Source of the DNA: Gammaproteobacteria bacterium
GTDB taxonomy: Bacteria; Pseudomonadota; Gammaproteobacteria; Ga0077536
DNA: 64,000 nucleotides
Direction of reading: 5' to 3'
Assembly (NCBI GenBank): GCA_963662545.2
Contig: CAXXLL010000002.1
Location: 1,120,001 to 1,184,000, forward strand
Position numbers and translations under genes: made by a program. Below are positions 18,843 through 20,801 of this stretch, piece after piece. The notes below the pieces were generated by a model, which saw only the letters and a program-made list of their open reading frames with translations, had not been told where the DNA came from and did not search any database. How positions within the stretch are numbered: position 1 is the stretch's first letter; each line of letters opens with the position of its first letter.

Positions 18843-20801
18843 GTGTCGTCGATCCATAATCCCGGAGAATTTCCGCCGTTCGCGCCGGCGCCCAACGCGG
18901 TGGTGATCGACGCGATGGTGGACGATTTCAAACGTCGCCGGGTACGGGTGGCGTCCTGGGTGTTCATCGTCACTGTGTCGCTCGCCTTAACTGCGAATTT
19001 TCTCCGTCCTCCGGTATACCGCGCGATCGCGTTGATTGAAATTGAGCCGCCGGCCTCGCAGCCTGAAGCGTCGCTGACGGTGCTGCTGGGCAGGGAGCGC
19101 GAGCGCATCACCAGCGAAAGCATATTGAGGGACATCGACAGGCGACTCGGCGATTCGATATTTTCCAGCGACATCGGCAATGCGCGCAGATCCGGCTTGG
19201 AGCTGGAGGCGGAAATCGCCGTGGACACGAATCTGATCAGGCTTTCTGCTTACGGACGGAAACCGGACATCCTGCCTCTCATCGTGAACACCTGGGTTGC
19301 GGTGTATCAGGACAAACTGTCTCAAACGCAGGGTGCGAACGTTGAACGAACAAAGGCGGCTCTCGATACCCAACTCGCTGAATTCGAAACGCGCATCCGG
19401 GACCAAAGATATGAAATTGACGCGTTTCGGGAGGAGCACGATATCGTTTCCCTCGACAGTGATCAGAACCGGGTGCCCGCCCGGCTCAAGGGCGTTTCGG
19501 ACGCGCTCGCCAGCGCGCGGGAGGATCAGACGGTGGCCGTCGCTGAACTCGAATCGCTGCGCCAGGCCGTGGCACAGGGGCGGCTCGTCAGTGACTCGCG
19601 GGATGAACGCGTCATTGCCGATCTGGAAGCCCGGGTTGTAGACCTGCGCGCCCAGATCCTTGATTTCGACGAGCGCTTCACCTCGGCCTACGAAGCCTAT
19701 GATCCGTCCGTGACCACCGCGAAGAAACAGCTGGCTAACATCGAGGAGGCGTTGATCGCCAGGCGGGAGGAAGCCCAACAGGCCGTGATCAGCGAGGCGG
19801 AGAAGACATTAAACAGCGCGCGCATGCGAGTGCGGGCCCTGAAGACGGAGATGGCCGAGTACCAGGGTCAGGCGACCGAGTTCCTGGGTCTTTACCAGGA
19901 GCACGAATCGCTGCAGCTCGAATTGGACGAACTCGAACAGCAGACCCAGAAGATCCGCAACGAGATCGTCGCAGCGGAAGTCGCGAACCGGAACCTCTTC
20001 CCGCGGGTTGAAGTGCTCGAACCGGCGTTTACGCCGACCGCGCCGATTCGCCCGCAGTACCTGCGGGACGCAGCGTTCGGCGTTGCGGGATCCGTTCTGC
20101 TCGCTTTGCTCGCGATGTGGGTGTACACGCGGCTCAAGAATCCCTACCGATATGCGGCAGGCGGCGTGGTCCAACAACCGAATATCCTTTCCTATCACAC
20201 GCAGATCTTAGCGCCAGGCGGTGGGGAGATGCCGCTCACCCACGACCCTGCCGGCGTTCCCGCCCTGGCTCATCAAAGTCGACGCGAACTTTCTCTCGTC
20301 GAGGTCCAGGCCATGTTCGCGGTGTGTGAAGCCGGTGAGCGCCTCCTGCTCGGCCTGCTTCTCGTCGGCCTGACCGTCGATGAAATCGGGCAGTTAACCG
20401 AAGATGCCCTCGACGTGGAGGGTGAGCGGATTCATGTTGGCGGCGCCCAAGCCCGGATCTTGCCGCTTCCGCCGTTCATACGGCGCGCCCTTGATGAAGC
20501 AGAACTGAATCGTACGGAACTTTTCGACGCGGCGGCGATACCGGCCCGGCTCGCGCAAGCGCCGTATACCGCAGGCCTCGCCGATCCGGGGTCAGTCGAT
20601 GCCGACGCGCTGCGGCATACTTACCTCTGCTTTCTCGTACGGCAGGGATTGAAATTTGACGAACTGCAGCGGATCGTGGGGCCGCTAGACGCCAGAGAGA
20701 TGCAGCGATACGGAGAGATGATGCCCCCGATGCCGGGCAAGAACGCTGCGGAAGTGACGCTCGTCTACCCGGCGCTGGCACCCTCGCCCCAGGTCGAATG
20801 A
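18843..20801 (+). CDS. Wzz/Wzc(GumC)-like membrane coiled-coil protein fused to a degenerate tyrosine-recombinase domain
   Basis: TM1 + PPVYRAIALIEI, long coiled coil, VEVLEPAFTPTAPIRP + TM2; C-terminus ELSLVEV..GLTVDEIGQL..RILPLP..DALRHTY..LQRIVGP..MQRY. Confidence 0.8.
   Translation: MSSIHNPGEFPPFAPAPNAVVIDAMVDDFKRRRVRVASWVFIVTVSLALTANFLRPPVYRAIALIEIEPPASQPEASLTVLLGRERERITSESILRDIDRRLGDSIFSSDIGNARRSGLELEAEIAVDTNLIRLSAYGRKPDILPLIVNTWVAVYQDKLSQTQGANVERTKAALDTQLAEFETRIRDQRYEIDAFREEHDIVSLDSDQNRVPARLKGVSDALASAREDQTVAVAELESLRQAVAQGRLVSDSRDERVIADLEARVVDLRAQILDFDERFTSAYEAYDPSVTTAKKQLANIEEALIARREEAQQAVISEAEKTLNSARMRVRALKTEMAEYQGQATEFLGLYQEHESLQLELDELEQQTQKIRNEIVAAEVANRNLFPRVEVLEPAFTPTAPIRPQYLRDAAFGVAGSVLLALLAMWVYTRLKNPYRYAAGGVVQQPNILSYHTQILAPGGGEMPLTHDPAGVPALAHQSRRELSLVEVQAMFAVCEAGERLLLGLLLVGLTVDEIGQLTEDALDVEGERIHVGGAQARILPLPPFIRRALDEAELNRTELFDAAAIPARLAQAPYTAGLADPGSVDADALRHTYLCFLVRQGLKFDELQRIVGPLDAREMQRYGEMMPPMPGKNAAEVTLVYPALAPSPQVE

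Follow-up and report, generated by a model that had tools for sequence, protein, structure and literature searches.

Capsules and exopolysaccharides owe their chain length and export to polysaccharide co-polymerase (PCP) proteins, whose cytoplasmic domain is considered the control point; a Pro-rich motif is one of the defining features of these proteins. One member, PslE, is a working PCP whose kinase-like cytoplasmic domain is devoid of activity (PMC13434223). The tyrosine-recombinase fold, in turn, is known from proteins that do not recombine: MrpR/YopR of SPbeta and SroF of phi3T are reported to be recombination-inactive repressors that bind DNA (PMC10516654). Here we describe a gene that joins the two. 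It lies in a stretch of 64,000 nucleotides from a Gammaproteobacteria bacterium (assembly GCA_963662545.2, contig CAXXLL010000002.1, positions 1,120,001 to 1,184,000 of the forward strand; hereafter the window) and encodes a PCP-type envelope protein with a degenerate tyrosine-recombinase domain at its C-terminus. This fused protein belongs to a known kind, the PCPs, and puts a second known fold to use where it would not be expected; the combination is real, widespread and conserved. In our preferred reading, to which we give an even chance, it is an accessory PCP paralogue of exosortase-type exopolysaccharide systems, and its pseudo-recombinase domain is a tethered module for protein interaction or regulation.

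The PCP part is recognized by profile and structure comparison. An AlphaFold model of the full-length protein, built with 71 family sequences (predicted local distance difference test score, pLDDT, 87.7), consists of a PCP-like part (residues 17-438), a stretch with pLDDT below 50 within residues 440-473, and a compact C-terminal domain at about 480-650. It places helices at residues 17-54, 144-385 and 406-432 and strands at 58-68, 120-138 and 388-393, and has the layout of a PCP, with two transmembrane helices (TM1 and TM2) flanking a large, predicted periplasmic helical domain on an alpha/beta base. The Pro-rich motif stands ahead of TM2, with P404 invariant and Y406 nearly invariant among the 71 sequences. 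Run against all solved structures, a profile (A1) built from the 652-aa protein and six of its homologs aligned residues 112-441 with PslE 145-489 (E = 8.7e-10) and also found Wzc (E = 6e-7), in an alignment that stops at about residue 497. Foldseek, run with the full-length model, ranked Wzc first (E = 1.3e-9), followed by KpsE and WzzE. An earlier note on this DNA, made from the sequence alone, had proposed a PCP layout for this part, and the PslE and Wzc matches agree with it. The single sequence scores lower: Wzz of Pfam matches residues 28-79 (E = 0.0059, 17.3 bits, under the cut-off of 25.5), the best NCBIfam match of the N-terminal part is TIGR03007, the chain-length determinant of XrtA systems (E = 3.3e-10, 38.8 bits against a cut-off of 278.85), and EpsF (TIGR03017) comes second for the periplasmic part (E = 7.5e-7, 28.2 bits against 422.75). 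PCP homology is thus supported at the profile level only, with the curated Wzz threshold missed. The C-terminal P-loop tyrosine kinase of PCP-2a proteins, with its Walker motifs and Tyr-rich tail, is absent; the C-terminal domain has a recombinase fold instead.

That this domain has the catalytic fold of tyrosine recombinases was confirmed at the levels of sequence, profile and predicted fold. The single sequence matches Phage_integrase of Pfam at E = 0.061 (13.5 bits against a cut-off of 27.1), a match that spans positions 8-165 of the 172 in that profile. Residues 476-625 match archaeal XerA of NCBIfam at E = 0.0029, far under the cut-off. Precomputed PF00589 annotations are found on three of seven homologs and, in the Atlas, on 24% and 20% of the members of two clusters. 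The A1 profile aligned residues 475-633 with XerD 97-281 (E = 3.1e-10). Modelled alone by AlphaFold with 13 orthologous domains, the C-terminal 178 aa reached a pLDDT of 90.8 and a predicted template modelling score (pTM) of 0.87, and this model matched XerA in Foldseek (E = 3.6e-6, template modelling score 0.69, probability 1.00) and in VIA, which is independent of Foldseek (Z = 15.2, root mean square deviation 3.5 over 154 residues). The next VIA matches were a second archaeal Xer (Z = 14.9), the HP1 integrase (13.7) and IntI4 (13.4); topoisomerase IB and protelomerases came lower down, and unrelated helical proteins appeared only under Z = 4.5. A recombinase fold at the place of the Wzc kinase, as claimed in the earlier note, is what the XerD and XerA matches show, and the C-terminus does model as an integrase.

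The gene and its parts are listed below, with the evidence for each in brackets.

18843..20801 (+): whole gene, 652 aa with a GTG start, PCP-type envelope protein with a degenerate tyrosine-recombinase domain (open reading frame, full-length homologs, AlphaFold model)
18843..18947 (+): short, putatively cytoplasmic N-terminal segment, residues 1-35, ending in basic KRRRVRV (sequence; pLDDT low at 1-15)
18948..19004 (+): transmembrane helix 1, about residues 36-54 (hydrophobic stretch in model helix 17-54)
19005..20069 (+): predicted periplasmic PCP domain, about residues 55-409, alpha/beta base and long helices (profile and Foldseek matches)
20022..20054 (+): Pro-rich PCP motif PAFTPTAPIRP, residues 394-404, just ahead of TM2 (sequence)
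20070..20126 (+): transmembrane helix 2, about residues 410-428 (hydrophobic stretch in model helix 406-432)
20154..20273 (+): putatively cytoplasmic linker, residues 438-477, predicted disordered and poorly conserved (pLDDT, pairwise identity)
20274..20780 (+): degenerate domain of tyrosine-recombinase catalytic fold, acidic, residues 478-646 (XerD and XerA matches)
20367..20384 (+): GLTVDE, residues 509-514, Thr at the Arg-I position (family alignment)
20439..20456 (+): GGAQAR, residues 533-538, beta-hairpin Lys lost, structural Arg538 retained (family alignment)
20604..20624 (+): DALRHTY, residues 588-594, His-II replaced by Asp, Arg-II (R591) retained (family alignment)
20676..20684 (+): VGP, residues 612-614, His/Trp-III replaced by Pro (family alignment)
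20709..20711 (+): Tyr623, the recombinase nucleophile position (aligns to the XerD-motif Tyr in HMMER)
20712..20780 (+): conserved, family-specific tail after the Tyr, consensus SPPG...YPAL, here MPPMPG...VYPAL (conservation; pLDDT about 95-97)
18808..18826 (no strand assigned): hairpin GGAAGAAGGCC/TTTCTTCC between the M48 peptidase gene and the fused gene, terminator-like on both strands (consensus match only)

The motifs GLTVDE, GGAQAR, DALRH, VGP, MQRY (620-623) and PAFTPTAPIRP and the two hydrophobic helices lie where the earlier note had placed them, and its interval for the recombinase-like domain, 20284-20720, corresponds to residues 481-626. The homologs P0003 and P0004 have the N-terminus MSSI, identical to the start of the 652-aa protein. 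The linker has pLDDT below 50 at residues 440-457 and 459-473 of the full-length model and measures 31-54 aa among the 71 family members. In the tail after the Tyr, P628 is kept in 62 and P643 in 69 of these 71 sequences.

Most of the catalytic residues of the recombinase-like domain are lost. We counted them in an alignment of 144 family domains in which a genuine XerD-like domain from the window's genome marked the positions. The Arg-I position holds Arg in 4 of the 144 (Ser in 59, Thr in 37), the beta-hairpin Lys position holds Lys in 3, the His-II position His in 4, and the His/Trp-III position His in 9 (Pro in 42, Arg in 27). Retained are the Arg-II position (Arg in 124, or 86%), the position matching Arg538 (Arg in 132) and the Tyr position (Tyr in 114, or 79%), where the other 30 members have Leu, Phe or another residue. 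Arg-I, Arg-II and Tyr occur together in 2/144 domains, Arg-II and Tyr in 99/144. For Arg-I, Lys, His-II, Arg-II, His/Trp-III and Tyr, the 652-aa protein itself reads T, A/G, D, R, P and Y; the loss of four of six catalytic positions, reported in the earlier note for this one protein, is true of it and of the 144-sequence family, and the 71-sequence alignment gives the same picture. The beta-hairpin is 2 residues shorter than in the XerD-like control. A core-binding (SAM-like) domain is missing, as the match begins at XerD residue 97, after the disordered linker and TM2.

The domain is also acidic. In the 652-aa protein it has an isoelectric point (pI) of 4.72 and a net charge of -9; across the 144 family domains the median pI is 5.10 (range 4.20-7.03), and 142 of them carry a net negative charge, as do all 71 of the smaller set. 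The matching stretch of four real recombinases of the same genome has a pI of 9.8-10.6 and a net charge of +8 to +13. With most catalytic residues lost, no core-binding domain and this acidity, we read the domain as no longer a recombinase; since the phosphate-contacting residues are gone as well, it probably binds no DNA in the usual way.

The earlier note had suggested, as one option, that the domain still binds DNA; the protein would then be a one-component regulator anchored in the membrane, or a DNA-membrane tether, and would signal what state the envelope is in. We keep this as a rival of low odds because inactive DNA binders with a recombinase fold exist, and two of them, MrpR (Z = 11.1) and SroF (Z = 11.7), are among the VIA fold matches of the domain model. 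In its favour, enzymes with this fold bind DNA, the domain has a conserved Arg-II, His592 and structural Arg538, and it would face the cytoplasm. However, the negative charge in 142 of the 144 domains contrasts with the strongly positive one of real catalytic domains, and a domain that begins at about XerD residue 97 has no core-binding partner to clamp the DNA. The phosphate-contacting Arg-I, Lys, His-II and His-III are missing, the linker is disordered and poorly conserved, and no conserved neighbour resembles a regulatory target. We therefore consider DNA binding distinctly unlikely, and the tether interpretation is the least likely part of the earlier note.

The loss of catalytic residues is no sign of decay. 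The mean pairwise identity is 33.3% in the C-terminal domain, 32.1% in the periplasmic part and 17.8% in the linker; because the domain equals the periplasmic part and stands well above the linker, the sequences indicate that it is conserved under selection. From one sequence pair to another, the identity of one half rises with that of the other (Spearman 0.45), which would fit one old fusion inherited as a unit, as judged from pairwise identities.

The retained Arg-II and Tyr motivate a further reading, in which the Tyr or the whole domain serves as a substrate or docking site of a separate bacterial tyrosine (BY) kinase and thereby controls the assembly or activity of the PCP paralogue. Although catalysis is lost, 114 of the 144 domains still have the Tyr and 124 the Arg-II; the genome has a separate BY-kinase-like gene beside ordinary PCP and outer-membrane polysaccharide export (OPX) genes, and the domain stands where PCP-2a proteins carry their kinase and Tyr-rich tail. 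The HK022 integrase is phosphorylated and down-regulated by Wzc, according to the introduction of a citing paper (PMC2516531). Such a phosphotyrosine switch is nevertheless purely inferential and, in our view, rather improbable: no kinase gene is a conserved neighbour, the Tyr is replaced in 30 of 144 members, and two neighbours resembling tyrosine phosphatases (PHP and Y_phosphatase3) gave nothing.

The same two residues, present together in 99 of the 144 domains, could instead sustain a reduced phosphoryl transfer on a substrate other than duplex DNA, such as a phosphodiester-linked glycan or lipid carrier, or the domain could be a membrane decoy that sequesters Xer proteins or integrases. 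R600, Q601, D576 and the SPPG...YPAL tail are conserved beyond what the recombinase fold alone explains, and with about 18 matches the genome has many real tyrosine recombinases. Yet a domain left with two of the six catalytic residues is unlikely to be an active enzyme, no replacements for the others were identified, and the Tyr is not invariant. We know of no precedent for either variant and regard both as very unlikely. Doubtful, too, is the idea that the captured domain is a tyrosine-centred module, whose Arg-II/Tyr pocket is phosphorylated or docked by a BY-kinase, or forms a covalent phosphotyrosyl link to a non-DNA phosphodiester, and which gates an alternative PCP ring in exosortase/PEP-CTERM systems. 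If true, this would be the first non-DNA job of the tyrosine-recombinase fold in bacteria.

The fusion is found in a large family. Scanned with HMMER, 1.84 billion representatives of clusters at 50% identity yielded 1115 matches at E <= 1e-3 and 272 at E <= 1e-30; among the 150 matches listed, nearly all are about 650 aa long and align from end to end. By strict criteria, 142 of 156 fetched proteins (P0002-P0157) have both domains, 10 further ones have both with one match truncated or split, and 4 are short (438-535 aa) with no detectable C-terminal domain. When one genome per species was scanned with a pattern, 107 relatives came to light, and 73 of 80 retained loci are full-length. Carriers named in record titles include Methylococcales, Chromatiaceae, Nitrosomonas, Burkholderiales, Thiobacillus, Competibacteraceae, Desulfacinum and metagenome-assembled genomes (MAGs) of Desulfobulbaceae and Myxococcota; methanotrophs, purple sulfur bacteria, nitrifiers and Desulfobacterota are among them. 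Cultured carriers appear in these titles as Methylotuvimicrobium buryatense 5G, Methylobacter marinus A45, Lamprocystis purpurea DSM 4197 and Desulfacinum infernum DSM 9756. Two MAGs titled 'Klebsiella pneumoniae' and 'Streptomycetaceae' would seem to be odd results of binning. Samples drawn evenly had the full-length form in 8 of 401 genomes of the class, counting that of the window, and in 3 of 401 genomes of the phylum, the other two being of the same class; within the window's own family it was found in 6 of 25 genomes searched. Members carry the database labels 'hypothetical protein', 'putative GumC family protein' and 'integrase', the last of which is misleading. The earlier note knew no described system of this architecture, and we found no published description of a PCP fused to a tyrosine-recombinase domain in a literature judged partly from titles and the beginnings of abstracts; the combination with a degenerate recombinase domain is widespread and, it appears, undescribed.

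These numbers bear on the possibility of an artefact, be it an error of assembly, two genes joined through a frameshift or a pseudogene in decay. Weak points are all that speak for it, namely the scores of the single sequence under the Pfam cut-offs and a few truncated relatives. Against it stand the hundreds of full-length homologs with the same order of parts, the 73 full-length loci among 80 in named genomes, the intact frame, the conservation of both halves and identical independent contigs from two studies; an artefact is virtually impossible. The fusion, which the earlier note had seen in one assembly, extends far beyond it, in full-length homologs in which the same catalytic positions are mostly lost. 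The contigs of the two other studies span the whole 2.2-kb stretch with zero differences and possibly come from the same organism or source. Six short contigs of run X12, labelled sponge metagenome, are identical to the stretch 18700-20900, and the source organism or a very close relative may be sponge-associated. One metatranscriptome library holds an identical 188-nt contig inside the gene (19067-19254); as such libraries can hold DNA, this is no proof of transcription.

A search for the C-terminal domain in proteins shorter than 358 aa gave 6 matches. Five are probably fragments, as their contigs are short (1.2-1.4 kb for four of them, 3.1 kb for the fifth); the sixth is a 279-aa protein on a 155-kb contig. 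The ortholog at G370:C13:33464-35494 (L024) has one TAG inside the matched stretch, in an 802-aa open frame, which may mean that the copy is broken or that the match was extended too far.

Neighbourhood in some lineages and co-occurrence across genomes link the family to XrtA/PEP-CTERM exopolysaccharide systems. At two loci (L066, L076), the gene for PrsT, a tetratricopeptide-repeat protein of XrtA/PEP-CTERM systems (849 bits, cut-off 312), lies directly upstream, together with WecB. At three others (L074, L111, L117), the glycosyltransferase EpsB_2 (541 bits) and the histidine kinase PrsK (865 bits) are encoded within 8 kb. A cassette of PqqD_rel_X, HprK_rel_A and NTP_transf_5 lies upstream at L055, L064 and L100; according to TIGRFAMs descriptions, this HPr-rel-A cassette is a companion of exosortase systems.

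In the class sample, where an exosortase was called from a TIGR02602 match at E <= 1e-20, 105 of 401 genomes have one (one of the 105, G164, is flagged unpublished), namely 7 of the 8 carriers of the fused gene and 98 of the 393 non-carriers (naive one-sided Fisher p = 4.5e-4); among 41 relatives, the figures are 6 of 6 carriers and 13 of 35 non-carriers (p = 0.006), and both p-values overstate the case because the genomes are kin and the carriers fall into five or six taxonomic families and tend to have large environmental genomes. Direct checks of eight carriers outside the window's family found an exosortase in seven. The co-occurrence is, in our view, a lead with support. In the window's genome (G000), the region C2:2.246-2.275 Mb, some 1.1 Mb away from the fused gene, encodes an ordinary 544-aa PCP, a BY-kinase-like protein (C2:2269176-2269754; 98 bits, slightly below the cut-off), the single OPX protein of the genome and an exosortase, which is about 24 kb from the other three. 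Ordinary PCPs lie close to exosortases on the same contigs in other carriers as well (G012 C53, G007 C7, G024 C38 and C51). As the ordinary PCPs sit with the exosortase loci, the fused protein is an additional paralogue and not the cluster's own PCP.

We infer the topology, oligomerization, partner and actual role of the fused protein as follows. It would sit in the inner membrane with a cytoplasmic N-terminus, TM1, a periplasmic helical domain of about 350 aa, the Pro-rich motif and TM2. Homology to Wzc and PslE suggests that both termini face the cytoplasm and that the periplasmic part oligomerizes, as in other PCPs; the positive-inside rule likewise points to an N-terminal segment (residues 1-35) inside the cell. 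The place of the PCP-2a BY-kinase would be filled by a flexible linker of about 40 aa and a domain of about 170 aa derived from a tyrosine-recombinase catalytic domain. The protein may work with XrtA/PEP-CTERM-type exopolysaccharide machinery encoded elsewhere in the genome, with its tethered pseudo-recombinase domain acting as a cytoplasmic interaction or regulatory module that replaces the kinase ring. Since the linker is predicted to be disordered, the domain would more likely catch a partner as a 'ball on a chain' than form a rigid ring. The 'scaffold output' role of the domain that the earlier note had offered besides DNA binding is plausible. A predicted complex of four C-terminal domains (alignment A3) scored 0.00; the controls did not fold, and this result counts neither for nor against oligomerization.

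Several points weigh against an accessory PCP with a scaffold-like module. The main loose end is the retention of Arg-II (86%) and Tyr (79%), of which a pure scaffold role gives no account. Net charge is only a rough indicator, and DNA or some other anion could still bind to a basic patch on part of the surface. The long flexible linker of the model argues against a rigid, Wzc-like cytoplasmic ring. With TIGR03007 and Pfam Wzz scores far under the curated cut-offs, the fused protein is, by sequence comparison, not the XrtA chain-length determinant itself. The window and most other loci are flanked by unrelated housekeeping genes (hemE, uvrD, purK, ptsP, malate synthase and others), PEP-CTERM or HPr-rel-A markers lie within 10 kb in just 9 of 93 loci, and loci that share a neighbour are mostly kin, which leaves few independent observations. 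Finally, one carrier, G145, has no exosortase (its genome is 88% complete in 350 contigs, and a congener has one), and the co-occurrence may arise from large environmental genomes rather than from a functional tie.

In the window, the fused gene follows a pair of genes for a DUF898 membrane protein (406 aa) and an M48 peptidase with an N-terminal DUF7092 (361 aa), which overlap by 4 bp (16489-18791), are likely an operon and are kept as a pair in a same-genus genome (L018). Then come the hairpin, with a perfect 8-bp stem and 17 bp before the GTG start, the fused gene, and a SnoaL/LEH-like gene. A promoter scan found no promoter-like site between the hairpin and the start codon. A Crp-type regulator that binds cyclic nucleotides (cNMP) is encoded 1 kb downstream (21800-22513, reverse strand). 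Altogether, the window neighbours comprise an alcohol dehydrogenase (ADH)-type oxidoreductase, DUF898, the M48 peptidase, LEH/SnoaL, Crp, a cyclase, DUF2797 and EamA; they are shared with the same-genus genome only, and orthologs of other genera in the window's family have unrelated flanks, with no conserved neighbour within 9 kb across these genera. Most neighbours across 80 named loci are housekeeping genes kept by local synteny. The fused gene is thus usually solitary and outside polysaccharide clusters, and the cluster location expected of a PCP gene is not found in the window. The earlier note's statement that exopolysaccharide genes are lacking nearby stands for the window; elsewhere it gives way to the XrtA/PEP-CTERM link described above.

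In some lineages the fused gene is translationally coupled to the gene of an MsbA-like ABC exporter, which comes next at 9 Methylococcales-type loci with a gap of -77 to +10 bp (-4 to +10 in eight); this exporter scores 348 bits against TIGR02203, under the cut-off of 602. These loci (L044, L052, L086, L087, L091, L092, L103, L109, L113) share the order purK, fused PCP, MsbA-like exporter, PHP protein, which spans about 10500-13400 in each, the PCP and exporter genes overlapping or nearly touching. We rejected the PHP gene after the exporter (8 loci) as a CpsB-type phosphatase, since it is of the 3',5'-nucleoside bisphosphate phosphatase/RNase RNM type. A glycosyltransferase of family 2 (GT2; TIGR04283) is encoded directly downstream at 6 loci and a Wzx-type MOP flippase at L036; the GT2 and Wzx neighbours make up 7 distinct places, as the 6 GT2 and 2 Wzx rows each count one contig twice (L031 = L069, L036 = L056).

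A gene for a Trypsin_2 protein of about 270 aa (HtrA-like, without PDZ) is found a few kb from the fused PCP at L055, L064, L066, L074, L076 and L111, which are loci with PEP-CTERM or HPr-rel-A markers. At L017 (G004), a Y_phosphatase3-family gene (11174-11944) is divergent from and adjoins the ortholog, with a cNMP-binding/rhodanese protein beside it; this gene occurs at L017 only, and tyrosine-phosphatase neighbours were dropped as evidence. A role in defence was rejected, as PADLOC returned only coiled-coil noise (LmuB and JetC at residues 154-392).

A mobile element was considered as well. The congeners L035 and L036 share no flanking genes; against mobility, L032 and L024 are syntenic, as are the window and L018, and local synteny is seen in many lineages. 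At L035, a DDE transposase gene (DUF772 and DDE_Tnp_1; 7770-8666) lies directly upstream of the ortholog. Among genuine recombinases, the window's genome (G000) has repeats of identical or near-identical score, two 329-aa frames at C3:7206-7772 and C3:922452-923018 and four frames of 397-400 aa at C3:2175131, C2:1758093, C3:2630963 and C3:2963685, which suggests multi-copy mobile elements. L003 and L004 hold near-identical recombinases that differ at Arg-I (GLRASE and GLCASE).

Our results describe a large conserved PCP family in which the control domain has been swapped for a dead, acidic recombinase fold. For research on capsules and biofilms, this is a natural experiment on what a PCP needs of its cytoplasmic domain, and for research on recombinases it is a case of a fold re-used, probably without DNA. 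The link to exosortases adds a candidate component to the poorly understood PEP-CTERM sorting and exopolysaccharide system.

Compared with known systems, the protein resembles Wzc of E. coli, a PCP-2a, and PslE of P. aeruginosa in having TM1, a helical periplasmic domain on an alpha/beta base, the Pro-rich motif, TM2 and a putatively cytoplasmic C-terminal domain. With PslE (PMC13434223) it shares a cytoplasmic domain that is catalytically dead. Unlike in either protein, this domain has a recombinase fold and not the P-loop fold of BY-kinases, it hangs on a predicted disordered linker of about 40 aa, and the gene lies mostly outside polysaccharide clusters. The PCP-2b proteins TIGR03007 and EpsF (TIGR03017) are the best NCBIfam matches of the periplasmic part; the family occurs in exosortase genomes and, in some lineages, beside PrsT, PrsK and EpsB_2. 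However, the scores are far under the cut-offs, those proteins end soon after TM2 and use a separate kinase, and the window's genome has its own ordinary PCP next to an OPX and a kinase-like gene. With Xer proteins and integrases (XerA, XerD, IntI, HP1, lambda; PF00589), the domain shares the catalytic fold motif by motif (Z = 12-15), the retained Arg-II, the LRH[ST][YF] helix and the Tyr position. It differs from them in lacking Arg-I, Lys, His-II, His/Trp-III and the core-binding domain, in its acidity and membrane tether, and in its beta-hairpin, shorter by 2 residues, and family-specific SPPG...YPAL tail. MrpR/YopR and SroF (PMC10516654) are likewise cases in which the recombinase fold has outlasted recombination activity. 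They are soluble two-domain phage repressors that bind DNA, whereas the protein described here carries a single, acidic domain of the catalytic type, fused to an envelope protein.

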